A stretch of 64,000 bases of DNA from an uncultured bacterium (GCA_964632485.1 CAZWDO010000001.1:293631-357630), one strand, 5' to 3'. Shown: positions 4,143 through 59,992, counted from the first letter of the stretch. Made by a program: numbers and translations. Notes: generated by a model from the letters alone, not told the origin.

Positions 4143-4357
4143 TCACATTCACCTTTCAACCCTTCTTGTTTTATCTTCCGAGCCCACGGACGGCCGAGGA
4201 CTGTATTTAAGCCGTGCGTCAGCGGCGATCGCGCCGGCGCGAGATTGTATCTATCATTATAAATCATCACAATCAGCTTGTCAAGTAGAAAAATTTATTG
4301 TGGGGCCACAACAGGGGGGAAGCCGGGATTTAACAGGAACAAACGCAACAGAACGCG

Positions 4358-5479
4358 CTATCCACCAATCAGTCGCAGGATGCGCTCGGTGATTGAGCGC
4401 CAGTCATATTCAGCGAGCTCGGCCAGATCGACCGGAATAAATTGATTGCGAGCGGCATGGACAGCGTCAGCGATAAAATCCTCCCGGGTATCGGCCAGAC
4501 GGCACCATCGGGCATAGCGGTCCAGCTCATGGCTGCGGATGGCTACAACGGGCAAACCCGCTGCGACATATTCAAACAACTTGACAGGATTCACCGCTTG
4601 TGAAAGCGGACCCGTTTTGAAGGGAATCAGGCCCACATCGAATCCGGCCAGATATTGCGGCAATTGCGCATAGGATTTCACGCCCAGGATGTGTAGGTTC
4701 GGGGGAATATCTCGTGGAATAGGAATTTCCCAGGGGCCGATCACGACCACACTGCCTTTCGGACATGCCGATGCCAGTTCGATCAGTAGCGCAATATCCA
4801 ACCAGGGACCGATAGTTCCAACATACCCAAACCGAGGATGAGGATGAGCGGTCAAATCCCCGGCGGGAACCAATCCGCGACGCGCCCGGCTGAAATGCTC
4901 GATTTCAACGCCATTGGTGATGTGATGCGTTCACGAATTGAAGCGGCGGCATTTATCAAACAACAGTTGCGATGTCGCCAGCACTCGATCGCCCCGCCGA
5001 ATCAGTTCAGTTTCCATTCGGGATATAACTCGTTGTTGCCAGCCATTAAAAAAACAGGAGTAGTCGTCCAGACAATCTACAATCACGCGCGATTCCCCCA
5101 ATAATCCAATCAAATCGACATGGGTGGGAAATGAAAGCCAGAGCCGGGGGGAGCTGAACCCCAATGTACGTAGCACGGGCAGCAACTTGAAGGCCAACCA
5201 TCTCTGATTCAAGCGGTTGAGCAAGCGAAACCAGCGACTGAAAGGTAACGCCGGAGCCGGGGTAAACAGCCACAAGCGCTCATCCAACCTTTCCAGCCGG
5301 GAGCGCCAGGGACGGTGGGCGGTATGCTGCAGTTTACGCAACAAATGGGTGCATACTGAATAATTGACGGTATTCACATAGAGCACGTAATTCATCACGG
5401 CCAATTGCTCAGCCAAATGTTGGGGACGCTGTTTGATGCTATGCCAATCATTCACGCCACAATACACAATGCCTTTCAT
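4358..5479 (-). pseudogene. GT4-family glycosyltransferase interrupted by one in-frame TGA (4931-4933); possible pseudogene or sequencing error
   Basis: Track ORFs 4931..5500 (GT N-terminal half) and 4358..4873 (C-terminal half, EX7E-like region) are in the same frame. The stretch between them is open and reads NS*THHITNGVEIEHF, the conserved GT4 'NGV(D/E)xExF' linker. The likely start is MKGIVYCGV at 5479, directly after the wecB stop. Confidence 0.7.
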
Positions 5480-6615
5480 CCTCGCCACCCGGACAACCAA
5501 CGCTGCAGCGTTTCAACAATCCGTTCAGCCGCATGGCCGTCCCCATAAGGATTTTTGGCCTGAGCCATTTCCGCATAAGCGGAGGGGTCCTTTAATAAAC
5601 GGATAGTTTCCGCGACAATCCGCTGGGTATCTGTTCCCACCAGCCGCAGCGCGCCGGTGGCTATCCCTTCGGGACGTTCAGTGACGTTACGCATGACCAG
5701 CACCGGCTTACCCAGACTTGGGGCTTCTTCCTGTATCCCGCCGGAATCAGTCAAAACCAAATAACAGCGCTGTATTAAGCGGATAAAAGTTTCATAATCC
5801 AACGGCTCAATCAGATGAACACGATCGATTCCCTGCAATTCCCTCTCAACAACAGTTCGCACAAATGGATTTCCATGCATGGAAAAAACAAAGGCAATAT
5901 CGGAAAAATTTTCTGCTAATTGACGTATAGCGCGGCAAATGTTCTCAATCGGCGCGCCCCAGTTTTCCCGACGGTGGGCGGTCACCAGCAAAACGCGTTT
6001 TTGAGCGAAATCCACCCGATTGAACAACGCGCTGGAAAATCGATAAGGCCGATCAGCTATAGACAACAACGCATCAATTACCGTATTGCCGGTAACAAAA
6101 ATCCGTTCAGCGGGAATATTTTCCCGTAGAAGATGCTCCCGGGCCGATTGGGTTGGCGCAAAATGCAGGTCCGCTAAAACACTGGTCAGCCGCCGATTCA
6201 TTTCCTCTGGAAATGGTTGATGCTTATCATAGGTGCGTAATCCGGCCTCTACATGGGCAACCGCTATTTTCAGGTAAAAAGCCGCCAATGACGCCGCCGG
6301 CACTGTCGTTGTATCTCCCTGCACCAGAACTATATCGGGATGCTCTGTTTCAAGGATCGACTTTAATCCCGACAATACTTGTATAGAAATCTCAAAAGGA
6401 GTTTGTTCGCCATTCATAATATTCATATCGTAATCAGGAACAATCTCAAACAAACGCAATACCTGATCCAGCATTTCACGATGCTGGGCAGTTAAAACAA
6501 TGACCTGCCGATATTGATCGGGATGTTCAGCCAAACATCGGATAACCGGAGCCAACTTGATAGCTTCCGGACGGGTGCCGATAACCGTGAGGATTGTAGC
6601 TGGTTTATTTGCCAT
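5476..6615 (-). CDS. wecB: UDP-N-acetylglucosamine 2-epimerase (non-hydrolysing)
   Basis: The N-terminus ILTVIGTRPEAIKLAPV, the motif HVEAGLRT and a length of 379 aa are typical of WecB/MnaA. Confidence 0.88.
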   Translation of the reverse strand: MANKPATILTVIGTRPEAIKLAPVIRCLAEHPDQYRQVIVLTAQHREMLDQVLRLFEIVPDYDMNIMNGEQTPFEISIQVLSGLKSILETEHPDIVLVQGDTTTVPAASLAAFYLKIAVAHVEAGLRTYDKHQPFPEEMNRRLTSVLADLHFAPTQSAREHLLRENIPAERIFVTGNTVIDALLSIADRPYRFSSALFNRVDFAQKRVLLVTAHRRENWGAPIENICRAIRQLAENFSDIAFVFSMHGNPFVRTVVERELQGIDRVHLIEPLDYETFIRLIQRCYLVLTDSGGIQEEAPSLGKPVLVMRNVTERPEGIATGALRLVGTDTQRIVAETIRLLKDPSAYAEMAQAKNPYGDGHAAERIVETLQRWLSGWRG

Positions 6616-6672: not shown

Positions 6673-7986
6673 TCACACTGGTTCGGAATGAACAGAAGCA
6701 GGCGGGATTTCATTCAAAAGCATTGCTAATTGACGGGTAAGTTCGCTACGCTCAAAGCGCGCCAGAAGCTCTCGAGAGGGATGGCAATCATCCGGCTGAG
6801 AGCGAACGGAATCAAACATCATCAGTAAAGCGTCGGCGATAGCGTCCGGGTTGTCCGGCGCTGCAACGGCGCCTAATTTTTCTTCCATCACAAGTGTGGT
6901 GATAATTCCAGGGGGCGCAACGGCCAAAATAGGACGCCGCGCAGCCAGATACTCAAAAAATTTATTGGTCAGAGTCATCCCGCTCAGAACGGTGGGTGGC
7001 AGGATCAATAACAGGAGATGCGAGCGGCGCATGATGTTAATAGCATCCCGATGGGGAATGAATGGCAGGATTTCAACAAAAGGAGCCAGTTTTTCCAAAC
7101 GACGCCGGTATTCAGGCGCGAATTGTCCGATAAAACGCGCTTGCGCTGTATTACGGAAAACATCGCTTTGAGCGATGGCGCGGGATAACCCTTCTGGAAA
7201 CGCATTGTCGACCCGATGCCCTAACATAGTGCCGGCGAATGTGATCACAAATTTATACTTATTCAGAACCGATGAAGTCGAATCAAAATCTTCCGAATCA
7301 AATCCATTGGTTATTGTGCGGCATTTGGATGCGATTGGAGCGCCAAACAGGGTCTGAGTCGCCTGAGCCAGGGATTCGCTGGTCATTATCGCTCTGTCGC
7401 AGCGGTCCAAGACCTGTTTTTCCGCGAATTGCTGCATTTTCAAGTGAAGTTTCCCTACACCTTGCAATACCTTATTTTCAACTGTCCATGTATCGCGGAA
7501 ATCGGCGACCCACGGCAATTGTTTATGGTGTTTTAACCATGCGCCGATCAGATGGACGGAATTGGGTGGCGAAGTAGTCAGAACAACCTCGCATGAATGC
7601 TCATCCAACACTCTCAGACACTTCCGTATTGCTCCGGGAATCCACACGATGTTGGGATCGGGAATCATGACGCGGTGAGCGAAACACACGGCCTGTTTTC
7701 GAAACCAGGCGGTTAAAGTGAGTGAATCCGCTGACCCGGGAGATGAAGAAAGATGCATTCCCCTGCGTGTCGGCCATGGCCGATGAACCCGATAGACAGG
7801 AGTCGATGGCGCTATATCCCGCGCCAGGCTTTCGTCACTATTCCACAATGTATCTGAGCAGACGACAATTGGCTGCCAGCCGAATTGGGGCAGGTATTTG
7901 ACAAATTTTGTTACACGCAAGACCCCGGTACCCCCCTGGGGCGGAAAATCAAAGGTAACGATCAGTACTTTTTTCAATTTCGTCAT
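6673..7986 (-). CDS. Glycosyltransferase family 4
   Basis: The GT-B fold C-terminal half contains an EX7E-like motif. The likely true start is the ATG at 7986 (MTKLKKVLIVTFDFPP) with an AAGGA Shine-Dalgarno site; the track's extension to 8124 runs into the GC-rich repeats. Confidence 0.75.
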   Translation of the reverse strand: MTKLKKVLIVTFDFPPQGGTGVLRVTKFVKYLPQFGWQPIVVCSDTLWNSDESLARDIAPSTPVYRVHRPWPTRRGMHLSSSPGSADSLTLTAWFRKQAVCFAHRVMIPDPNIVWIPGAIRKCLRVLDEHSCEVVLTTSPPNSVHLIGAWLKHHKQLPWVADFRDTWTVENKVLQGVGKLHLKMQQFAEKQVLDRCDRAIMTSESLAQATQTLFGAPIASKCRTITNGFDSEDFDSTSSVLNKYKFVITFAGTMLGHRVDNAFPEGLSRAIAQSDVFRNTAQARFIGQFAPEYRRRLEKLAPFVEILPFIPHRDAINIMRRSHLLLLILPPTVLSGMTLTNKFFEYLAARRPILAVAPPGIITTLVMEEKLGAVAAPDNPDAIADALLMMFDSVRSQPDDCHPSRELLARFERSELTRQLAMLLNEIPPASVHSEPV

Positions 7987-8050
7987 TAATATATATCCTT
8001 GATAAGCGTATCGATACTTAATCTGCTTGACCCGAGAACCAATTTCGCCC

Positions 8051-12369: not shown

Positions 12370-14031
12370 TCATCTAATTATCAATTCGACTCTTCGATTA
12401 AGTTCCCGTCCTTTTTCCGTATCATTGGAAGCGATCGGTTGGGATGAACCTTTTCCCGAACAGATTAGGATTTCAGCATTGATGCCGGCATTGACCAAGC
12501 GTTTCTTAACGGCTTCCGCGCGCTTTTGTGAAAGCAGCGTGTTATAGTCCCGAGTTCCTACATTATCGGTATGGCCCACAATTTCAAATTTGTATTTGGG
12601 ATTTTCTTTAATCAACTCTAAAACTTTCTGTAAATCGATATCCGATTCGGGTCTGATTTCATCCGAATCAAAATCAAATAACAGATTATTTAAAATCAGT
12701 TTTGAGCCTTTAGCAATGGGCATCAATAAAATATCGTTAATAATCCGGTCCGTTGTCAGCTTATTATGCGTGTTAATGACTGAAGAAGAAAAAAGATACC
12801 CTTTTTTATGGGCCCAAAGGGAATAATTTTTCCCCGACGAAATAGATACTTCATAAGCGCCATTTTTTTTATCGCTCTTCAAGGCTGTTGAATCAGCGAG
12901 ATTCCCTGATTCACGAATTATAATGGCGCTTTCCAGCGCTTTTAATGTTAATGCATCTTTAACCGTACCCGAAAGAATCAGACTGACTATCGGTTGTTGA
13001 GAGGTATTTTGCGGTTTACCCAATTGTATTTTGGGAAGTGTTGTCATATAGATATCCCCGTTTCCTTCCCTGTCTGAAAAAAAATAAGCGGTTTTTCCAT
13101 CCCCGGCTATGGATAAACGGCCATCCTGACCGGAAGAGCTGATTGGCATTCCCAGAAGTTCCGGAGTTGTCCATTCGTTATTTACCAAAGTACTGCGAAA
13201 TATATCATTTTTACCAATACCCGGATGACCATTGGAAGCAAAATATAAGGTCCTTCCATTGGGAGAAAGAAAAGGGGCAGATTCATCTGCCGGAGTGTTT
13301 ATAATTTCACCCAGATTTTTCGGGACTCCCCATTTATTATTAGCATCTTTTTCCATCAGCCAAATATCCCATTGCCCGAAGCCAATTCCTTGAGGATTAC
13401 AGGAAAAATAGAGCTTTTTCTTATCCGGAGTTAAGTAAGGATCCTGATACGTCACAAACGACACTCCGCCATCCCCTTTATAGGTAGAAAAAGGGTCTAA
13501 TGCTTCAATTAGTTCCCAGCCGTTGGCAGTTTTTTTTGCCAGAATAATCCCCTGATTCAGATTTACTAATGTATCGCCTTTTTTTTCTCCTGCGTCAGCG
13601 ACAATGCTCATTTTATGAGATTTCGCAAAGACCATGGCTTCTCCATCGGGAGTGATTGATCCCATCAAGTTTAAATCCTCCTGATTCATGGGAGAATCCA
13701 TTTTTTTTACATTTGATCCCTGCCCCTGGTTTATATCCGCCCGTAAAATATCCAATTTCATGAACCCGGTCATTCGTGAAAAATAAAGAGTTTTGCCATT
13801 GGAATAAATAAAAGGGGCCATTTCATTGGAGGAAGTATTAACACTGCCAGTGAGTTTTTGTACTTCGACATTTTCTTGTTTGTTGATACGGATACGATTA
13901 TCCAATTCACCCATTTTAGAAAACCGAACACAACTTGAAAGACCCAAATCGCAAATTACAACACCCACGAGCAGGAAAGCGAATCTTAGCTGAATACTAT
14001 TTACCCGAATGGCTCTTTTCGCTGTTTTCAT
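12370..14031 (-). CDS. Lipoprotein with TolB-like beta-propeller (PD40) repeats and a C-terminal OmpA/MotB peptidoglycan-binding domain
   Basis: Lipobox LSSC. Repeated PD40-like segments (SPNGRTLYF, TPDGEAMVF). The C-terminal OmpA_C motif is NTLLSQKRAEAVKKRL...NRRVELII. GGTGA Shine-Dalgarno site upstream. Confidence 0.8.
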   Translation of the reverse strand: MKTAKRAIRVNSIQLRFAFLLVGVVICDLGLSSCVRFSKMGELDNRIRINKQENVEVQKLTGSVNTSSNEMAPFIYSNGKTLYFSRMTGFMKLDILRADINQGQGSNVKKMDSPMNQEDLNLMGSITPDGEAMVFAKSHKMSIVADAGEKKGDTLVNLNQGIILAKKTANGWELIEALDPFSTYKGDGGVSFVTYQDPYLTPDKKKLYFSCNPQGIGFGQWDIWLMEKDANNKWGVPKNLGEIINTPADESAPFLSPNGRTLYFASNGHPGIGKNDIFRSTLVNNEWTTPELLGMPISSSGQDGRLSIAGDGKTAYFFSDREGNGDIYMTTLPKIQLGKPQNTSQQPIVSLILSGTVKDALTLKALESAIIIRESGNLADSTALKSDKKNGAYEVSISSGKNYSLWAHKKGYLFSSSVINTHNKLTTDRIINDILLMPIAKGSKLILNNLLFDFDSDEIRPESDIDLQKVLELIKENPKYKFEIVGHTDNVGTRDYNTLLSQKRAEAVKKRLVNAGINAEILICSGKGSSQPIASNDTEKGRELNRRVELIIR

Positions 14032-50535: not shown

Positions 50536-50988
50536 CTATTTACTGTTTGAGATTAATACATAGCACGGCGCATACTCAATAATTTGTTCTAATTGTTTCC
50601 CGGCAATTACACCTTTAGTACCACCCCGATCACTTGATCGCGGTAACACAATCAAATCGACCTCATATTTTCGAGCCAAACTGATTACTCGATCCGGAAC
50701 CGGACCATGTTCGAGAATGATAAAATTTTTAACTTTATGCTCTAAAGCCATTTCTTCAAAATAGTACAAATATTTCCAGCCGTTTTCCTCAAGCTCAATT
50801 TCTATTTCGCCGATTGTTATATCCTTCTGGAAACGGGCCAATTGAGAAACAATCGTGGGATCAATCACATTAACGGCAATAATAATTGCACTATGCGTTT
50901 GCGCCAGGGACAAGGTATAATTTGCTGAGTTCAGAGCAGCATCGCTGCCATCCATTAAAAAAAGAATTTTGTTGATTACTTTTTCCAT
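50536..50988 (-). CDS. uspA: Universal stress protein (UspA family)
   Basis: 150 aa with a Usp alpha/beta fold; the C-terminal ATP-binding-like motif resembles G-2x-G-9x-G(S/T). Confidence 0.75.
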   Translation of the reverse strand: MEKVINKILFLMDGSDAALNSANYTLSLAQTHSAIIIAVNVIDPTIVSQLARFQKDITIGEIEIELEENGWKYLYYFEEMALEHKVKNFIILEHGPVPDRVISLARKYEVDLIVLPRSSDRGGTKGVIAGKQLEQIIEYAPCYVLISNSK

Positions 50989-50992
50989 TCGT

Positions 50993-51622
50993 TCACTCTT
51001 TCGCCTGGTTAATCTTTGATTTTATTTTTTTCATTCTAAAAAATTCTTCTTTTTCCAACTCATCCAGAATATCAGTAATTTTTCTGACCGTTTCCTGATA
51101 TTGGGGGATAAAAATATTGGCTAATGCGTTAACCCGGCGATTATTCCGTTTAATTTCCTCAGCCAGGCGCTTAATTGAAATATAGACTTCCGCCCATTTG
51201 AGGAGTTTAGGCACCATTTTTTGTATAGAAAGCGTCGCCGAATTTATTTCAAAATTACTTTGGGTCAATGTAACGGGATTCACCTGCTCAGAAAACTCCT
51301 GCAATTCAATTTGCGGAATATAAACACCCATAACACTTTTTTCAAAAATCTCAATCTTGAAATCATCCTGCCGGTGCTCCACCAATCGATCAAACTGGCT
51401 CTGTCCCAAAAGAGTAATCCCTTTTCTCACATACTGGACAGTACGGTTCAACTGTTCCTGGATATCGGAACTAACCTGCTTCAACGCATGTACCTGAGAC
51501 ATAAACTCTATCATCAGAACTTCACGTTTTTGCTGTAGCAATTCATGGCCCTTTTTTGCCAGTTTAAGGCTATCCTTAGTTTTGAGTAAATTAGTACGGG
51601 TCGGTTTTACTTTAAGCGACAT
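50993..51622 (-). CDS. atpD: V-type ATP synthase subunit D
   Basis: N-terminus MSLKVKPTRTNLLKTKDSLKLAKKGHELLQQKRE is typical of the V/A-type D stalk subunit. Confidence 0.88.
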   Translation of the reverse strand: MSLKVKPTRTNLLKTKDSLKLAKKGHELLQQKREVLMIEFMSQVHALKQVSSDIQEQLNRTVQYVRKGITLLGQSQFDRLVEHRQDDFKIEIFEKSVMGVYIPQIELQEFSEQVNPVTLTQSNFEINSATLSIQKMVPKLLKWAEVYISIKRLAEEIKRNNRRVNALANIFIPQYQETVRKITDILDELEKEEFFRMKKIKSKINQAKE

Positions 51623-51636
51623 AGTGAAATACCTGG

Positions 51637-53028
51637 TTAAAAATCTTCAGGAAGGAGATCAACATAGTATTGGCTAATCTGTTCCTCGGTGACACGATTT
51701 AGTTCTTCTCGCGGAAGAATTGAAATAGCCTTCCAACCCAATTCCAGGGTTTCCTCTATTGAACGGTTAGCCATTCCCTGGCCAATGAAAAAAGTTTCGA
51801 ATTTATCGCCAAATTTTAGATATTTTTTGTCAGTATCTGATAATTCTTCTTCTCCGATAACCGAAGCAAGCGATCGCACCGATTGGACATTGGCATAAGC
51901 GGCATACAATTGGCTGGAAAGATTGGGGTGATCCGGACGGGTCATATCTCCACCGATACAATCCTTCATTAAACGCGAGAGGGAAGGAAGCTCTTCAATT
52001 GGTGGATAAATATTTCTAGCGTGAAGTTCACGGGATAAGACAATCTGGCCTTCAGTAATATAACCGGTTAAATCGGGGATAGGGTGAGTTATATCATCAT
52101 TAGGCATTGAAAGAATCGGAATTTGAGTAATCGATCCATTCAGATTTTTAATTCGACCGGTACGTTCATACAACGCGGCTAAATCACTGTACATATAGCC
52201 GGGATATCCTTTTCGGGAAGGGATTTCTTCACGGGCTGTGGCTATTTCGCGCAAAGCCTCACAATAATTGGTCATATCTGTTAAAATCACCAGGACATGG
52301 TAGTTAAGGGTAAACCCGAAATACTCGGCAGTTGTTAATGCCGCCCGGGGAGTAACCAACCGTTCAATAGTGGGATCGTCGGCCAGATTCAGAAAAAAGA
52401 TCACACGATTCATAGCGCCTGCAGATTGGAATTCATTAATAAAATAGTCAGCGTCGTCATGTTTGACACCCATCGCGGCAAAAACAATAATGAATTGTTC
52501 CCCGCTGCCGATTTTGGCCTGTTTAACGATTTGTGCGGCCAATTCATTATGCGGCAAACCTGCGCCGGTAAAAATTGGTAGTTTTTGTCCACGAACCAGC
52601 GTGTTCATTCCATCGATCCCTGAAATTCCAGTTTGAATAAAATTGACCGGATATTCTCGTGAGACAGGATTGATCGACATCCCGTTCACATCAAGAAACT
52701 GTTCGGCCACAATAGGAGGATGGCCGTCAATGGGTTTTCCGGTACCATCAAAAATTCGCCCCAGCATTTCACGGGCGACCCCAATTTGCTGGGTGCGCCC
52801 TAAAAACCGAACCCGGGTGGAATCTTTATTAAGTCCATAGGACCCTTCAAAAATTTGAATCGCCGAATAATCGGCGCTTACTTCCAGCACAGTTCCATGC
52901 CGGACATGCCCCTGGCTATCGGTAATTTCAACCAGTTCATTGTATCCGACATTTTGAGTGTTCTCAACAATAACGATCGGGCCATCAGCCCGGCTGATTC
53001 CCAGATACTCACGATGTATCCACTTCAT
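51637..53028 (-). CDS. atpB: V-type ATP synthase subunit B (non-catalytic)
   Basis: 463 aa; conserved B-subunit blocks ([27 protein letters not shown]). Confidence 0.9.
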
Positions 53029-53042
53029 AGCGATCCTTCCGT

Positions 53043-54821
53043 CTATTTTGAATAGATCAGTTCAAGTTTGAGCATATCATCATCGATGATAGACTGGACT
53101 TGTTTCAGGTCATCCATTTGATCATTGGTATATTTGTATTTCATACGCAACAGCGTTTCTCTGACCGACAGGCTATTAATACGGGTAACCGGGCATCCGC
53201 CGGTAATTACCTTACGAGCCTTTTCATAAAAATGTCGGATAAGGGAAAACATCAATAGTTGTTTTGCAGGGGAGCAAAATGTATCGATTGGATCAAACGC
53301 AGCTTGCTGCAAGAAAGCCTGTTTGATAATTTTTGCGATTTCTATAACTAAGCGTTGTTCATCCGGCAAGGCATCCTGACCGACCAGTTTCACGATTTGC
53401 TGAAGTTTCTCTTCTTGTTGCATAATATCCATTCCCCAGGCGCGCAAGGCATTCCAATCAACATCCGGGGCAATTCCCTGCCAATAGGAAAGTACATAGG
53501 ACACATATTGGCTATAACTTTCCAGCCAGGAAATAGCTGGAAAATGGCGCGCTCCGGCCAGTTCTTTATTCAATGCCCAAAAACAGCGGGTAAAGCGTTT
53601 CGTGTGCATCGTAACCGGTTCGGAAAAATCACCTCCGGGAGGAGAAACCGCGCCGATAACGGTTACAGAGCCTTGGCGGTCAGCAGTAACATTAACCCGG
53701 CCTGCGCGCTCATAAAATTCCGCTAAGCGGGAAGGCAAATATGCAGGATAGCCTTCATCCGCAGGCATTTCTTCCAAGCGACCCGAAATCTCACGCAAGG
53801 CTTCTGCCCAACGGGAAGTCGAATCGGCCATTATCGCTACGTTATAGCCCATATCCCGATAGTATTCACCCATGGTAATTCCCGTATAAATACTCGATTC
53901 ACGAGCAGTAACCGGCATGTTTGACGTATTGGCGATCAAAATAGTCCGTTCCATTAACGGTCGTCCCGATTTAGGATCAATCAAATGGGGGAATTCATCC
54001 AAAACCTGCGTCATCTCATTTCCCCGTTCACCACAGCCGATATAGACAATAATGTCCGCATCGCTCCATTTTGCCAATTGATGCTGAGTTACGGTTTTTC
54101 CAGTACCGAATCCTCCGGGTATTGCCGCCACTCCGCCTTTTACGATCGGATAAAAAAAATCGATAACCCTCTGACCGGTTACCAGGGGCAAGGTCGGACT
54201 CAACCGTTGGTGAATAGGCCGACCTTTTCGAATTGGCCAAAAATGGTACATCGGCAATGCGTGGATTTTTCCCTTATCGTCTTCAATCTCAGCGACAATG
54301 TCATCAATCACATATTCCCCGGCAGGCAAAATTTTTACAATTTTGCCCTGGATACCAAAAGGAACCAGAACGCGATGGACAACCAAAACAGTTTCAGGCA
54401 CTTCCCCCAGAATTGTATTGTAACTGACAGACTGGCCGATTTCCACTTTGGGCTCAAATTTCCAGGATCGCTTTTCATTAAGCGCTAATATATTAATCCC
54501 GCGGCGAATGAAGGGAACCTGGCTTTCCTGCAAAATCCGGTCCAAAGGGCGTTGGATTCCGTCAAAAATTGATCCGATCAATCCCGGCCCCAATTGGGCA
54601 GATATGGGCTTCCCCGTCTGGATTAACGGATCTCCGGGCTTCAGTCCACTGGTATCTTCATATACTTGAATAACAACATATTCAGAAAATATCTTAATAA
54701 TTTCACCGATCAGCTCCTCTTCCCCGACAAAGACCTGTTCACCCATTTGTGGATTCAACGTATCCTGCGCCTGGACAACCGATCCAGTTACTTTTTTTAT
54801 CTTTCCAGGATTTGTATTCAT
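53043..54821 (-). CDS. atpA: V-type ATP synthase subunit A (catalytic)
   Basis: Walker [10 protein letters not shown]. The likely start is MNTNPGK at 54821, whose ATG overlaps the subunit E stop (ATGA). Confidence 0.9.
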
Positions 54822-55423
54822 GAGCGCTCCCAAATAGTTTGGAAAATTTTATGTTTCTTATCATCATACCAATCATTAAAAATCGATTCCAGTCGTAAAT
54901 CAATAAAAACATGGCATTGGGAATTCTCAACAATAAAGCCGCCTGCCATATTTTCTGCTACTACTTGGGGGACTTTTCCGTTATGATAGTTTTTTTCCAG
55001 ATATTCAGAGCAAAGCGAGCAATCCTCTTTACGGGTTCTGACTATCGAATTTTCATCTTCCCAATATTTACGAGTCGCTTCAAGAGAAGCGCAATAAAAT
55101 CCATGATATTCATCCGTCGCAACCCATTGGTTAAGAAGCGCCAACACGCAATCTTTAATTTTTCCATAGAATTCATGTTTTTGCTCTAATTGACGCATGT
55201 TGGCATCCATTTCCAGCGCGGCCTTTTTCCGTGAAACCTCCTGCTCCGCGTTTTTTTTAAACTGGACAAGGTAAAGTTCCCGTTGATGTTCCGCTTGTTC
55301 GCGAAAAGGCCTAAGATTTCTTTCCTTAGCTTTTTCCGCCAGAGAAAGAATACTCTCGCTCTCCTGGTTGGCTTTATCTAAAACCGCTTTAATCATTTTT
55401 TCCAGATTTTCATCATTATACAT
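54818..55423 (-). CDS. atpE: V-type ATP synthase subunit E
   Basis: Coiled-coil N-terminus; C-terminal GGFIVEN motif typical of V/A-type E. Confidence 0.75.
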   Translation of the reverse strand: MYNDENLEKMIKAVLDKANQESESILSLAEKAKERNLRPFREQAEHQRELYLVQFKKNAEQEVSRKKAALEMDANMRQLEQKHEFYGKIKDCVLALLNQWVATDEYHGFYCASLEATRKYWEDENSIVRTRKEDCSLCSEYLEKNYHNGKVPQVVAENMAGGFIVENSQCHVFIDLRLESIFNDWYDDKKHKIFQTIWERS

Positions 55424-55457
55424 ACGCTTCCCTTTCAGGAATTATGACAATCAAAAC

Positions 55458-55766
55458 TTAAAATTTAATACCCACAATCTGTTGGATATATTTTTGGATA
55501 TCCTCTTCCCGGGGAGATTCTCCGGCGTTGGGCACTTCCATAAAAAGAGGTCGAGTCAGGTTCTGAAACTCATCGAAATCTTCTTTTAATAATTCTCGGA
55601 TGAAGCGGTTAAAGATGACCAGACCGATCTCCTCCCTATCCAGAATTTTTTTGAGTTCAAATTTCAAATCCGTCATGGAGATATCCTCCGCTACAATCTG
55701 ACCCTGGATACCAATCAGGGAAAAAGCGCGAACAGTTATCTCATCACCAACTACATAAAGTTTCAT
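55458..55766 (-). CDS. atpF: V-type ATP synthase subunit F
   Basis: 102 aa; MKLYVVGDEITVRAFSLIGIQG matches the F subunit. Confidence 0.8.
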   Translation of the reverse strand: MKLYVVGDEITVRAFSLIGIQGQIVAEDISMTDLKFELKKILDREEIGLVIFNRFIRELLKEDFDEFQNLTRPLFMEVPNAGESPREEDIQKYIQQIVGIKF

Positions 55767-55769
55767 CGC

Positions 55770-56138
55770 TTAAATTTTTGTTAAAAGGATAATGCTGACT
55801 ATCAAACCATAAATCGCAATGCCTTCAGCTAAGCCCACAAATATTAAAGCGCGTCCAAAGAGTTCCGGTTTTTCAGTGATAGAGCCGATAGCGGCGGCTC
55901 CGACATTAGAAACAGCAATTCCAGCGGCAATAGCCGACAAGCCGGTAGCCAATGCAATCGCAATATACCCTAAGCCTGGATTTAAATTAGTCGGCGCGGC
56001 AACCGGTACGCTGCTCACCGGGGTGGCATCATGCTCTTGCGCATGGACCAACGCCACTAAAAAAATAGCGGCGGCAAAAATAATAATCATTCGGTTCACT
56101 TTTGACATCATTTCAAGGGTCTTACCCAGTTTCATCAT
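55770..56138 (-). CDS. atpK: V-type ATP synthase subunit K (proteolipid c-ring), 2-TM hairpin form with an N-terminal extension
   Basis: Gly/Ala-rich helix (GLSAIAAGIAVSNVGAAAIG); a conserved carboxylate in helix 2 (GLAEGIAIYGL). Confidence 0.8.
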   Translation of the reverse strand: MMKLGKTLEMMSKVNRMIIIFAAAIFLVALVHAQEHDATPVSSVPVAAPTNLNPGLGYIAIALATGLSAIAAGIAVSNVGAAAIGSITEKPELFGRALIFVGLAEGIAIYGLIVSIILLTKI

Positions 56139-56155
56139 AGCTTGCTCCTTTGAAT

Positions 56156-58147
56156 CTACTTTAACGTTAAGGGTTCGAATTTAGTACCATTGCCATCGAA
56201 AAATTTCGAAAAAAATTCATAATAATGAAGACGAACAGTTTGTATTCCAACTACCATCCCTTCCATGAGAATGATGATGGCATTGCCAAGAATAATGTTG
56301 AGAGCATCCGTAAGCGCGCCACTATTCACCATCTCTTTAAACACATCACTGATCAGAAAAATTGCGCTGCCCAAAGCCGCATGATTCAGCGCAAACGCGC
56401 CCACACGCACGAAGGATACCGTATTGGTAAAATAGCTCATGACCATTTCAATCATTTCAAATATCTGCTGGATTATGGATTCATTCTCTTCATGCCGAGA
56501 TTGACGCGTCGGAGTGAAAATACGGCCAATCTGCTCTTTGAACAGAATCAGCGACAATAAACCGACAAGAATGGTCAACGCTGCCAGGAGATTGATATTA
56601 TAGCCAAATTGAATCGAAAGAATCGCCAAACTCAGCAATGACCAATAAAAAACGAAACTAACCATCCCATTGTGTCCCAACCAGGCGTCAATGTAATTGC
56701 CTTTGCGCCAAAGCTGAATCACATTCAAGAGGATACCCAGACTGAGGTAGCTCACACCCACAACAATTGAAAACGCCAATAACTGGTTTATATGATGAAG
56801 GGGGCTGAACCACAGTGGCGGGATGAGCTCCTCAAAACAAAAAATACTGCCAAAAAACCAGCCAAACAGCATGGAAGCGCCGCCACAATATAGTAAAATC
56901 GATCCGGCGACTCGTACTCCCGCATCGTTCAAACGGGGATGAAGCCGAAGAAAAAGACCGATCAACGCCAGAACCAAACCATGTCCAATATCCCCAAACA
57001 TTAATCCAAACAAAAAAAGAAACCCCAGCGAAACTATCGGCGTGGGATCGATATCGTCATACCCGGGATATCCATACGTGGTAACTAAAACCTCAAAAGG
57101 TTTGACGATTCCGTAATTCCAAAGCATCGTGGGGATTTTACCTAAATGCGGAAATTGTCTAAGAGCTTCTTTATCCTTCAATACTTCAATGGCGACCGTT
57201 TCTACCAGGGAATGATCTTGAATATAACGATAAATCGATTTCATATAAACCTCAGGAACCCATCCACTGAGATAGATAAAACTTTCAGTAGTAAGAGTTT
57301 GCTGGAACCCATCCAAGAGAACTTTCATATAGCGAATCAAATGAAAGGCTCGAGCGATCAGATCAATTTTATTATCGCGAAATCGTTTAAGCTCTTCCCG
57401 CAGTTCGATGAGTTCTTCACGTTTTTCCCAGGCGTTGAGTTCAATTTCATCCAGCACTTCTGAAATTGTTCCTTGATACTGGTCAGGAACATCCAGATCG
57501 ACATAATCCAGATTTTTCAAGATCGAATCCAACAAAGGCTGGTCATTTTTCAAAACAAATACAATAATGGCGCGTTTATCTTTATAATCGCCCAGAACAT
57601 GTAAAACACTGGGATATTTCTCCAGACTTTCCTTTAGTTTCAGCAAATCGCGGGCGGCAATAAATCCCCAGTGATATGCATAGTAACGCATTTTACGCAG
57701 TAAATTCACTTTAAAATCAGCATTTTCAAAACTCAACAAGGTATGAGAATATTGAAAAAGTTGATCGAGCTCATATTGTAGCAATTCTGCTCTTTCGGTA
57801 ATCTGCAAGCCGCGGGCTGACAAATCGGATAGTTCGCGGCTAAGATTCTCCATGCGCTCTGTATCATTAAACAAACCGATCATAGTTTCCGGGGAATCAT
57901 CAAATTTTTCAAACTCATTCACATCAAGCGCCAGTTTTTGAATCAGTTGATTCAAACTGTTTTCAAGATAAGGAATTTGCTGTTGAAGACGATCAGTAAC
58001 CTGGGAAGTCACCAACTGGGTAGGGAAAATTTTTTCGGCTGCAGAAAGTTGGATAAATTCCCGATAAGCCAAAAAAGCCATCAACCGCGGCGCAACATCC
58101 CGGTGTGCGGCAATCGATATAAAATTCATCCGCGCTGTTTTAAACAT
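56156..58147 (-). CDS. atpI: V-type ATP synthase subunit I (a-subunit)
   Basis: 663 aa; hydrophilic N-terminal half plus a multi-TM C-terminal half. Confidence 0.85.
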   Translation of the reverse strand: MFKTARMNFISIAAHRDVAPRLMAFLAYREFIQLSAAEKIFPTQLVTSQVTDRLQQQIPYLENSLNQLIQKLALDVNEFEKFDDSPETMIGLFNDTERMENLSRELSDLSARGLQITERAELLQYELDQLFQYSHTLLSFENADFKVNLLRKMRYYAYHWGFIAARDLLKLKESLEKYPSVLHVLGDYKDKRAIIVFVLKNDQPLLDSILKNLDYVDLDVPDQYQGTISEVLDEIELNAWEKREELIELREELKRFRDNKIDLIARAFHLIRYMKVLLDGFQQTLTTESFIYLSGWVPEVYMKSIYRYIQDHSLVETVAIEVLKDKEALRQFPHLGKIPTMLWNYGIVKPFEVLVTTYGYPGYDDIDPTPIVSLGFLFLFGLMFGDIGHGLVLALIGLFLRLHPRLNDAGVRVAGSILLYCGGASMLFGWFFGSIFCFEELIPPLWFSPLHHINQLLAFSIVVGVSYLSLGILLNVIQLWRKGNYIDAWLGHNGMVSFVFYWSLLSLAILSIQFGYNINLLAALTILVGLLSLILFKEQIGRIFTPTRQSRHEENESIIQQIFEMIEMVMSYFTNTVSFVRVGAFALNHAALGSAIFLISDVFKEMVNSGALTDALNIILGNAIIILMEGMVVGIQTVRLHYYEFFSKFFDGNGTKFEPLTLK

Positions 58148-58149
58148 AA

Positions 58150-59088
58150 TTACTCCCCATGAAATGAATAGCCGATAATCATATTTTGTAGTTCGTCCGG
58201 AGCCAGTTGGTGATACTTTCCATTAATTAATATATTTAAATTGTGAAATTCCAAATGTAACAAAATAAAAAAAGCTATAAAATAGGAATAACGAAACGGA
58301 AAACCGCTTAATTGCTTTTTAGCGACTCCGAATAAAGCGCTTTGAATCCGGGTTTCATTCTGAGCGGGCGATTGTGGATCAAAAACAGCCACTAAAGGGT
58401 GGGCAGAAGAATGATTCAAGTAATCGCCTCGTAAGATACCCTCAATATGAAGAATAATATCATTGGAACCCTGCCGGATCAGATAAACCTGCAACGGCTC
58501 AACTGCTATTTGATAAATATAGCTCAATTCGTTGATAATTTTCAAATTATGATAATCCAGCCAATAGGAGATTATTTCCCGGGTTGCCGAATCAGTATCC
58601 AATTGAGTGAGCGTAGTTATTATTGTTTGCGCAAACGATTGCAACAATTGCGATTCATAATAAATAACCGGATGCCGATCTTTTTCCTGATTGTACTGAT
58701 CGATAATTTTAATGATATCGGAAGGAGATCGATTCGGGATTGACATTACCGATTGCAAACGGTAGGCGCTTCTCAGATTCGATATAGTCTCTTGAAGCAT
58801 CTCATAAACCACGAAAATCTGAGTGAATTCGCGGCTCTTACCTTGCGAAAACCGTTTAAGGAGAACAAAAAAATGAGTATATGCGCCTTTCAATTGAGCT
58901 TCGAGCTTTGCAGGGGTTATACCATTCAAGGGCTCAGGGAGAATGGCTGCATATTTTTGATTAAAAAAACTGATTAAACTGGTTAAACTATCAGCATGAA
59001 TCATCCGGTTCAGTTCCAAACGGTTCAATATAAAGGTTTTGTAAAACGAAATAATAGGGAATCCGGCAAAAAACGCGGCAGGCAGCAT
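58150..59088 (-). CDS. atpC: V-type ATP synthase subunit C (d-subunit)
   Basis: 312 aa, all-helical, and positioned between G and I in the operon. Confidence 0.65.
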   Translation of the reverse strand: MLPAAFFAGFPIISFYKTFILNRLELNRMIHADSLTSLISFFNQKYAAILPEPLNGITPAKLEAQLKGAYTHFFVLLKRFSQGKSREFTQIFVVYEMLQETISNLRSAYRLQSVMSIPNRSPSDIIKIIDQYNQEKDRHPVIYYESQLLQSFAQTIITTLTQLDTDSATREIISYWLDYHNLKIINELSYIYQIAVEPLQVYLIRQGSNDIILHIEGILRGDYLNHSSAHPLVAVFDPQSPAQNETRIQSALFGVAKKQLSGFPFRYSYFIAFFILLHLEFHNLNILINGKYHQLAPDELQNMIIGYSFHGE

Positions 59089-59094
59089 GCTGGG

Positions 59095-59415
59095 TTACTC
59101 TTCTTTTAAACTTCGGATAAATTCTTGCAGGACCATTTGGCTAAGCGGATCTTTTTTTTCCTCAAACAATGTATTATAATAGCGGGTCGTTTCTGCCTGG
59201 GTTTCAGATAAGCGGCGTTGATGATCCGCTAATGCATTGTTTAGACTTTGCGCATATTTTTCCACTTCTTCATGGGCTTGCGCTAAGGCCATCTTAATAT
59301 ATTCGTTACCCTGTGTTTCGACTTCCTGACGAATTAATTCTGCGCGTTTACGGGCATTGCCAATCAATTCCTGGGCTTTTAATTCCGTTTCAAGAATTTG
59401 ACGTATCTGTTCCAT
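59095..59415 (-). CDS. V-type ATP synthase peripheral-stalk subunit G/H
   Basis: 106 aa, entirely coiled coil (ELKAQELIGNARKRAELIRQE), first gene of the V-ATPase block. Confidence 0.6.
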   Translation of the reverse strand: MEQIRQILETELKAQELIGNARKRAELIRQEVETQGNEYIKMALAQAHEEVEKYAQSLNNALADHQRRLSETQAETTRYYNTLFEEKKDPLSQMVLQEFIRSLKEE

Positions 59416-59537
59416 TACTTTTTTTTCCGTTTCATGAGGTTACGGATTTCGCGGATCATCAGAAAAACCACAAAACCCAAAAATGAAACTCTCACAATGA
59501 TCCACAGCCAGATGACCAGATCAGCAAAATTAATCAT
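59415..59537 (-). CDS. Unannotated 40-codon small single-TM protein, translationally coupled between ptsN and the V-ATPase operon
   Basis: Hand translation of the minus strand gives MINFADLVIWLWIIVRVSFLGFVVFLMIREIRNLMKRKKK*. Its ATG overlaps the ptsN TAA stop (TAATG). Its TAA overlaps the subunit G ATG (TAATG). An AGGAAGG Shine-Dalgarno site lies just upstream. Missing from the ORF track, whose shortest ORFs are 60 aa. Confidence 0.45.
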   Translation of the reverse strand: MINFADLVIWLWIIVRVSFLGFVVFLMIREIRNLMKRKKK

Positions 59538-59992
59538 TAACCTTCCTGAATCTTGATGAAATTGATAAATTCATCGGCCTTGTTAAATGTTAAAACCTTT
59601 TTTCGGTTTTCTTCTTTTTTAAAAATCCTTGAAAACCGCGCTAACAGAGCCAGGTATTCACCGGCTTTTTCTTTAGGCGCCAGTAAAAGTAAAACAAAAT
59701 TGACATTCTGTTTATCAAGAGCCCCAAAATCAAGGCTGTTTTTCAAACAGCAAAAGGCCGCAACGAAATCCACTACCATATCGGTCCGCAAATGAGGAAC
59801 TGCAATTTGGTCATTTACCGCGCTGGTATTGACTTCTTCCCGTTCTAACAAACTGGTTAATACCGGATCGACATTGCTGATTTTACCTTGTTTGGCAATC
59901 TCTCCCACTAGAGATTCTATGAGCTGGCTTTTCGATTTGAAACTTTGTTGTAGAAAAACTAAATCCTCACTAAACAATTCAAAAAGTTTCAA
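59537..59992 (-). CDS. ptsN: PTS EIIA(Ntr)-type nitrogen regulatory protein
   Basis: 151 aa, EIIA type-2 fold with the phosphorylatable His in DQIAVPHLR. Confidence 0.8.
   Translation of the reverse strand: MKLFELFSEDLVFLQQSFKSKSQLIESLVGEIAKQGKISNVDPVLTSLLEREEVNTSAVNDQIAVPHLRTDMVVDFVAAFCCLKNSLDFGALDKQNVNFVLLLLAPKEKAGEYLALLARFSRIFKKEENRKKVLTFNKADEFINFIKIQEG

Follow-up and report, generated by a model that had tools for sequence, protein, structure and literature searches.

A candidate small membrane protein gene between a PtsN-like EIIA gene and a V/A-type ATPase operon in uncultured bacteria

Results

A 40-codon frame between ptsN and the ATPase genes

Here we describe a small open reading frame (ORF) in a 64,000-nucleotide stretch of DNA from an uncultured bacterium (GCA_964632485.1 CAZWDO010000001.1:293631-357630), the whole of which we refer to as the window. 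The ORF lies on the minus strand between a PtsN-like gene for an EIIA protein of the phosphotransferase system (PTS) and the first gene of a V/A-type ATPase operon. The features that define the locus, in window coordinates and in the order of transcription, are as follows.

59537..59992, minus strand: stand-alone EIIA-2 (PtsN-like) gene, 151 aa, TTG start (Pfam PF00359, PTS_EIIA_2, 105.8 bits)
59541..59547, minus strand: AGGAAGG, Shine-Dalgarno-like, within the last EIIA codons (read in the sequence)
59535..59539, minus strand: TAATG junction of EIIA stop and peptide start, one-base overlap (read in the sequence)
59415..59537, minus strand: small ORF, 40 codons plus stop, ATG start, translation MINFADLVIWLWIIVRVSFLGFVVFLMIREIRNLMKRKKK
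59454..59519, minus strand: predicted membrane span LVIWLWIIVRVSFLGFVVFLMI, codons 7-28 (hydropathy windows, helix model, alignment A3)
59490..59492, minus strand: Arg16 codon (AGA), mid-span, invariant in four lineages (alignment A3)
59418..59453, minus strand: basic tail REIRNLMKRKKK, codons 29-40 (read in the sequence), conserved as basic in the homologous loci L085, L086 and L090
59413..59417, minus strand: TAATG junction of peptide stop and H-subunit start, one-base overlap (read in the sequence)
59095..59415, minus strand: stalk subunit H (archaeal nomenclature; G-like), 106 aa, coiled coil, first ATPase gene (weak V-ATPase_G, AhaH and ATP-synt_B matches)

An earlier note on this DNA had translated the ORF by hand and had placed TAATG overlaps at both of its ends and an AGGAAGG site in the 3′ end of ptsN. 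The computed translation is identical to the hand translation, and both overlaps and the site at 59541..59547 are found where they were described. The last A of the EIIA TAA is the first base of the peptide ATG (59539..59535), the last A of the peptide TAA is the first base of the ATG of the 106-aa stalk gene (59417..59413), and AGGAAGG (59547..59541) ends three bases 5′ of the peptide ATG. The neighbours are also those it named, with a PTS_EIIA_2 domain upstream and the ATPase genes H, C (AC39), I, K, F, E, A, B and D following downstream. From EIIA through the peptide and H to the rest of the V/A-ATPase, the reading frames run without gaps or terminators. A promoter and terminator scan of the region revealed no terminator-like site between ptsN and H and no relevant promoter, and an Rfam scan of the small-ORF region returned no family. 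The locus thus has the sequence features of translational coupling, namely overlapping stop and start codons, a Shine-Dalgarno site in the upstream gene and no terminator, and this junction geometry makes coupling of the peptide with its neighbours likely.

The ORF had been presented as hidden, which holds for an ORF track with a floor of 60 aa only: the identical 40-aa product has already been called, unnamed, in four public assemblies (NCBI, JGI, ENA and Logan). Its exact coupling had also been thought unlikely to arise by chance. The double overlap sets it apart in the window, where no second free-standing ORF of 30-60 codons overlaps by one base on each side (the two further hits in this size range are internal Met codons of ptsH), but an open frame of 39 codons has a chance of about 15 % at this composition. 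Because of this, the small ORF alone is weak, merely suggestive evidence, and it is the comparative data that decide.

Conservation in three further lineages

We searched for the peptide with a word-indexed protein search and with an exhaustive phmmer search against 1.84 billion representatives. In the word-indexed searches neither the peptide nor a two-sequence profile retrieved anything beyond the peptide itself and the protein P0007, and subunit C of the window likewise retrieved only itself. By sequence comparison the window lineage is isolated: the closest subunit A in one-genome-per-species contigs has 59 % identity (uncultured bacterium, locus L005) and is followed by the V-type-like ATPases of Nitrososphaerales. 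The peptide is absent from the loci of this subunit-A scan (L005 and the Nitrososphaerales-type loci).

The phmmer search found one other protein, P0007, of 40 aa and 54 % identity (E 5.4e-5). Its contig, L085, keeps the gene order of the window from dnaG and rpoN through subunit D (rpoN-hpf-hprK-ptsH-ptsI-ptsN-[peptide]-H-C-I-K-F-E-A-B-D). The ptsN-like gene is present in L085, as determined by tblastn and from the sequence, and the A of its TGA is also the first base of the second ATG in the small ORF (TGATG). The Shine-Dalgarno site CAGGAAGG is the same as in the window, and the spacer between peptide and H is 1 nt. The public annotation of L085 misses this ptsN-like gene (7549..8004, plus strand), because of its TTG start, and calls a 92-aa antisense ORF (7564..7842, minus strand) within it.

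A metagenome scan with an I-subunit alignment yielded 80 additional loci, and a two-peptide profile was then run against all stop-to-stop ORFs, in six frames, of 165 loci. This identified a homologue of 42 aa in L086 (5671..5799; 50 % identity, E 3e-15) in the context hprK-ptsH-ptsI-ptsN-[peptide]-H-C-I, with TAATG at its 5′ end, an 8-nt overlap with H and CAGGAAGAG as the counterpart of the Shine-Dalgarno site. The same scan gave a candidate of 42 aa in L090 (5106..5234; 33 % identity, E 0.015-0.044), from an organism of 65 % GC. There the ORF lies between H-C-I and a gene fusing HTH_17 to EIIA-2, which is outside any rpoN/PTS cluster; the gaps are 39 nt to EIIA and 7 nt to H, without overlap at either side. 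The L090 score was reached by 1 of 2000 architecture-preserving shuffles and, given this and the exactly syntenic position, L090 is a probable homologue.

The earlier note had named in advance what would undo its reading, the absence of a conserved ORF at this position in related genomes. Such an ORF was found in L085, L086 and L090, and the geometry of the upstream junction recurs with it in L085 and L086, both in the overlap of the ptsN stop with the start codon and in the CAGGAAG(G) Shine-Dalgarno site.

The pattern of change between the lineages is that of a coding sequence. The ORF encodes 39-42 aa in all four lineages. Differences at codon positions 1:2:3 number 14:9:24 between window and L085 and 16:7:21 between window and L086; the proportion of synonymous differences (pS) is 0.81 and 0.66, respectively, against a proportion of nonsynonymous differences (pN) of 0.29 in both comparisons, and dN/dS is 0.24-0.42 where dS is not saturated. 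The peptide frame is the sole frame open in all four lineages, every other having stops in at least one. Between window and L085 the peptide is 54 % identical, compared to 34 % for H, 32 % for C and 35 % for E, and is on par with I, F and K. In the four-lineage alignment A3 the invariant columns are M1, F4, L11, R16, V23, E30 and K39, and F4, L11, R16, V23 and E30 are kept while the GC content of the peptide gene spans 27-64 %. The close strains are uninformative on selection, since L001-L004 are 99.9-100 % identical to the window and L166-L171 nearly identical to L090.

With homologues in three lineages, coding-type substitutions and a sole shared open frame, the small ORF is very probably a real, conserved protein-coding gene, as the earlier note had proposed in calling it a genuine small membrane protein gene. 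For the more tentative ideas of that note, that the peptide may regulate or assemble the V-ATPase or connect the PTS-Ntr readout to it, the comparison is neither proof nor disproof. It falls outside the described families: a Pfam scan of the peptide gave no family at E <= 0.1, NCBIfam holds no relevant family for the four peptides, and a four-peptide profile against all PDB chain sequences gave only matches of E >= 0.34 (Nad3, the best at 0.34, and TraA pilin). By these searches the peptide is a new, very small family of four lineages outside every described family, and all its carriers are uncultured.

We also considered a programmed -1 frameshift that would fuse the peptide to H. A run of eight A at window positions 59418..59426 (minus strand) contains, in the frame of the ORF and within its final codons, A AAA AAG, a -1 slippery heptamer of the dnaX type. 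A -1 slip at this site would read Val and then the whole of H, giving a membrane-anchored stalk of 147 aa. The frame relation is not conserved: in the window H is offset by -1 relative to the peptide, in the three other lineages (L085, L086 and L090) by +1, with stop codons in all four. Frameshifting was therefore rejected as a conserved mechanism, and the heptamer is probably a by-product of the Lys codons. The A run is not an assembly error, because four independent assemblies agree on it.

Predicted structure

The peptide begins with a short acidic segment, continues with a hydrophobic stretch of 22 residues that has the invariant Arg at its centre, and ends in a tail rich in Lys and Arg. 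Hydropathy windows of 17 residues reach 2.4-3.1 in the L085, L086 and L090 homologues. An AlphaFold2 model built from a two-sequence alignment predicts one continuous helix over residues 4-39 (mean predicted local distance difference test score, pLDDT, 90). The earlier description of one transmembrane helix plus a lysine-rich tail agrees with these predictions. In all likelihood the product is a single-span membrane peptide and, with fewer than about 50 residues and one predicted membrane-spanning helix, it would belong to the class of small single-pass membrane proteins. By the positive-inside rule the N-terminus is predicted to be outside and the tail cytoplasmic. The purine-rich codons of the tail coincide with the place where the ribosome-binding site of H would be.

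The surrounding operon and its relatives

The EIIA-2 gene closes an rpoN-hpf-hprK-ptsH-ptsI cluster as its last member. It is 67 % identical to the window gene in L085 and 57 % in L086, and the phosphorylatable His motif 'AVPH' is kept in all three. A stand-alone, rpoN-linked PTS_EIIA_2 domain with a phosphorylatable His corresponds to PtsN/EIIA-Ntr. The window protein scores 61.2 bits with the NCBIfam PtsN equivalog TIGR01419, below the cut-off of 138.7, and a fructose-type IIA domain model outscores TIGR01419 with 93 bits; 'PtsN-like EIIA-2' is the safe name. The window H matches its family models weakly, and its L086 orthologue scores 29.1 bits with V-ATPase_G, which reaches the cut-off; the assignment agrees with the position of the gene ahead of C-I-K-F-E-A-B-D. 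The genes that follow H were assigned with Pfam.

50536..59088, minus strand: remainder of the V/A-type ATPase operon, C to Usp (Pfam assignments, ORF list)
58150..59088, minus strand: subunit C/d (AC39)
56156..58147, minus strand: subunit I/a
55770..56138, minus strand: subunit K/c
55458..55766, minus strand: subunit F
54818..55423, minus strand: subunit E
53043..54833, minus strand: subunit A
51637..53028, minus strand: subunit B
50993..51622, minus strand: subunit D
50536..50988, minus strand: Usp gene, after D

The V/A-type ATPase operon is complete, with H/G, C/d, I/a, K/c, F, E, A, B and D in one cluster. The K/c product (55770..56138, minus strand) carries an N-terminal extension of about 55 residues with a signal-peptide-like hydrophobic segment before the two-helix ATP-synt_C domain, which covers residues 59-118 only. 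The same extension is present in L005 (8581..8985), which is without the peptide. At window position 56057 (minus strand) this gene differs from L001, a JGI contig, by an in-frame indel of 12 nt (GTGGGTTCCACG, present in the contig and absent from the window) within the N-terminal extension of the proteolipid, otherwise the sole difference over 10.6 kb.

Among 37 loci in which H was located, nine have EIIA-2 immediately upstream, and four of these nine carry the peptide (the window lineage, L085, L086 and L090). The association of the peptide with EIIA (Fisher p 0.002, uncorrected for phylogeny) is suggestive. An architecture scan for ORFs with an N-terminal helix and a basic tail upstream of subunit C in 118 loci returned only the three true homologues and artefacts: the candidates in L091 and L105 are the C-termini of longer proteins and that in L088 is an unlinked ORF. 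The L091 protein, of 350 aa with a C-terminal membrane helix (4269..5321, plus strand), has a stop codon that overlaps the start of an H-like gene (5321..5644, plus strand); from its sequence we take it to resemble a metallophosphoesterase.

In unrelated lineages of 25-72 % GC, EIIA-2 (PtsN-like) genes repeatedly accompany this type of operon, placed immediately 5′ of H or, behind D and a Usp gene, at the 3′ end. EIIA directly precedes H in L093, L107, L134, L145 and L151, and a Usp gene follows D in about 15 loci. Attached EIIA or Usp genes lie at 59537..59992 and 50536..50988 in the window (both minus strand), at 13811..14777 in L005, at 3785..4684 in L010, at 4308..5066 and 13729..14665 in L090 and at 13823..14924 in L136. 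The attachment of EIIA-2 suggests PTS-type phospho-control of the pump; no paper on V-type ATPase operons with adjoining EIIA or Usp genes came up in literature searches.

No peptide homologue is present in L005, the genome-derived locus closest to the window operon. Another small membrane protein heads the operon there, encoded 159 nt upstream of H: a zinc-ribbon protein of 62 aa that has a membrane helix at its C-terminus (4898..5086, plus strand). Subunit A of the window is 52-58 % identical to the archaeal A subunits of L006-L084, mostly from Nitrososphaerales, with Bathyarchaeia and Acidilobus. The Nitrososphaerales 'V-type-like' ATPases have been described as horizontally transferred (PMC6863869), and their gene order (K...C...A-B-D...I) differs from that of the window operon.

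Discussion

Small membrane proteins that act as subunits or stabilisers of pumps are an established class, with KdpF, AcrZ and CydX/CioY as examples, KdpF being a non-catalytic protein that stabilises its complex (PMC12648545). Like the peptide, KdpF (29 aa, of the KdpFABC K+ pump of E. coli) is a tiny single membrane helix whose gene opens an ion-pump operon and adjoins the following gene closely, and by analogy the peptide would work most like such pump-associated micropeptides. The two differ in that KdpF heads kdpFABC, which encodes a P-type pump, whereas the peptide precedes the rotary V/A-ATPase genes H-C-I-K-F-E-A-B-D; the peptide has a buried Arg and a long basic tail, and it gives no Pfam match, the Potass_KdpF model included. 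The wider setting is comparable too, as in E. coli EIIA-Ntr controls K+ homeostasis via KdpD and TrkA. Short peptides also tune other ion-motive ATPases, among them phospholamban and sarcolipin (SERCA), FXYD (Na,K-ATPase) and AtpTheta (cyanobacterial F-ATP synthase), and some of them share the layout of a single membrane helix with a charged cytoplasmic segment. They show no homology to the peptide and act on a different enzyme class. AtpTheta is cited among the small proteins of a 2025 review on small membrane proteins, in which V-type enzymes are not mentioned (PMC12648545).

Rotary ATPases have small hydrophobic proteins of their own, encoded with or bound to the membrane sector: the eukaryotic Vo subunits e and f, Vma21, bacterial AtpI and AtpR/AtpQ of N-ATPases. 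These have at least two membrane helices and 70-130 residues, in contrast to the one helix and 40 residues of the peptide, and no Pfam, NCBIfam or PDB-chain match linked the peptide to such subunits or assembly factors (Vo e, Vma21, AtpI, AtpR). AtpR is noted for conserved Arg residues in the membrane that are proposed to face the c-ring carboxylate. To our knowledge no small extra membrane subunit has been described for the V/A-ATPases of bacteria or archaea or seen in their structures, and the literature searches turned up no report of small membrane proteins in prokaryotic V/A-type ATPases.

The explanation that we favour is that the peptide is a lineage-restricted accessory or regulatory partner of the membrane sector of the ATPase, and taken as a whole we consider it an even call. 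Ribosomes finishing one gene would re-initiate on the next, which would tie the dosage of the peptide to the operon. Because the hydrophobic segment of a 40-aa peptide is still in the ribosome tunnel at termination, the peptide would insert into the membrane post-translationally, after its release. Its partner would then be the membrane sector (subunit I and the K ring), which it might stabilise, help to assemble or regulate, with the buried Arg16 probably pairing with an acidic partner residue such as the ion-binding Glu of the K ring. The accessory role in the ATPase itself, argued from context and architecture, we hold tentatively, at slightly less than even confidence. A force-sensing arrest peptide of the MifM/SecM type was also considered and rejected, since the hydrophobic segment of a 40-residue peptide cannot exit the tunnel before termination; we infer that length excludes it.

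Several findings weigh against an accessory role in the ATPase. About 110 other related V-ATPase loci are without the peptide in the profile and architecture scans, and five of the nine EIIA-H junctions (L093, L107, L134, L145 and L151, all of high GC) lack it, with a gap of 6-20 nt. Since most related operons are without the peptide, and in five of them EIIA abuts H, it is optional for this type of ATPase. It occurs at EIIA-H junctions only (4 of 9, against 0 of the 28 loci without EIIA upstream), which fits a role related to EIIA equally well. Three of the four carriers form one low-GC clade with identical synteny and so there are only about two independent observations. The link to L090, the carrier outside that clade, combines weak sequence similarity with position: its match is not significant by sequence, and an unrelated ORF in L046 scores slightly higher. 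Lastly, the overlap of the tail with the ribosome-binding region of H means that part of the conservation of the tail could be at the nucleotide level.

This overlap bears on the view that translation of the ORF serves only to carry ribosomes from ptsN to the start of H, or to unmask it, with a functionless product. The stop/start overlaps at both ends in the window, the tight junctions in L085 and L086 and the location of the ribosome-binding region of H within the last codons of the peptide would all be expected of such a relay, and the five lineages that join EIIA to H directly, over 6-20 nt, indicate that the spacer is optional. A mere spacer would not, however, keep its sequence, and replacements are strongly under-represented (pN 0.29 against pS 0.66-0.81). 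Its length is also constant at 39-42 aa, F4, L11, R16, V23 and E30 persist with the layout of helix and basic tail between versions of the gene of 37 % and 64 % GC, and in L090 the ORF is kept at gaps of 39 and 7 nt where nothing overlaps, so that we regard the relay as improbable. The same selection on the protein sequence, together with a position, frame and sequence conserved in four lineages, makes a chance non-coding ORF most improbable despite the 15 % likelihood of the open frame at this composition. Equally hard to credit is the idea that the peptide acts by itself as a toxin or perturbs membranes, in the manner of type I toxins. In size, single hydrophobic helix and cationic tail the peptide resembles TisB/DinQ-type peptides (a class covered in PMC12648545), but it lies inside a gap-free, terminator-free operon with no promoter of its own or antisense arrangement, and without an Rfam match.

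The remaining alternatives keep a function for the product and give it a different partner. The peptide might be a membrane tether or adaptor that recruits the soluble, phosphorylatable EIIA (PtsN-like) to the membrane, and thus to the ATPase or another transporter. It immediately follows an EIIA-2 gene in every lineage, its start overlaps the EIIA stop in the low-GC clade, and it stands next to EIIA even in L090, where the EIIA differs in architecture (HTH_17+EIIA) and lies outside any rpoN/PTS cluster. Yet a highly basic tail of about 12 residues leaves little room for a specific protein contact, no peptide adjoins the EIIA genes at the 3′ end of this operon type in L005, L010 and L136 or the second EIIA copy of L090, five EIIA-H junctions do without it, and the invariant R16 within the membrane points to an intramembrane partner; we think a tether unlikely. 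A detached membrane anchor of the peripheral stalk, forming with H the equivalent of an F-type b subunit in two pieces, is a long shot by our estimate. Subunit b combines in one polypeptide what the peptide and H have together, a membrane helix, a basic juxtamembrane stretch and a coiled coil, and the peptide is always directly before H, overlapping it or within 7 nt. H weakly matches the soluble part of ATP-synt_B (E 0.001), the L086 peptide on its own weakly matches the membrane-proximal region of the NCBIfam F0F1 subunit B model PRK08475 (E 0.0038; 16.9 bits, cut-off 166), and an artificial concatenate of the L086 peptide and H aligns to ATP-synt_B positions 2-91 (E 4.7e-4). Against the 28-bit cut-off of PF00430, however, the concatenates of L086 and of the window score only 20.7 and 15.6 bits, those of L085 and L090 and the peptide alone do not match, and joining the two brings no gain for the window, L085 or L090. 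No fused protein of membrane helix plus H occurs among 39 H genes; peptide and H are separate ORFs in different frames with stops in all four lineages, at an offset that varies. A 12-residue tail is moreover too short to hold a coiled coil, and most operons of this type function without the peptide.

The accessory reading has a bolder form, in which the peptide is a hitherto unknown intrinsic component of the V/A-ATPase. The partner of Arg16 would be the ion-binding carboxylate of the K ring, or else an acidic residue in subunit I, and the phosphorylation of the adjacent EIIA, acting through the basic tail, would determine whether the rotor is braked or released. We judge this form to be quite unlikely as stated; in a related variant the peptide would anchor the H/G stalk in the membrane, as in the two-piece b subunit. 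If the intrinsic reading were true, this micropeptide would connect PTS-type signalling with a rotary ion pump.

Conclusions

All four lineages that carry the peptide are uncultured, and most relatives have a pump that works without it. That EIIA-2 and Usp genes are so often joined to this type of operon is possibly the more general lead, hinting that PTS-type phospho-signalling controls a rotary pump as EIIA-Ntr does K+ transport in E. coli. At the head of one such operon, a conserved 40-residue peptide with a buried Arg would be a concrete candidate for a small extra membrane subunit of V/A-ATPases.

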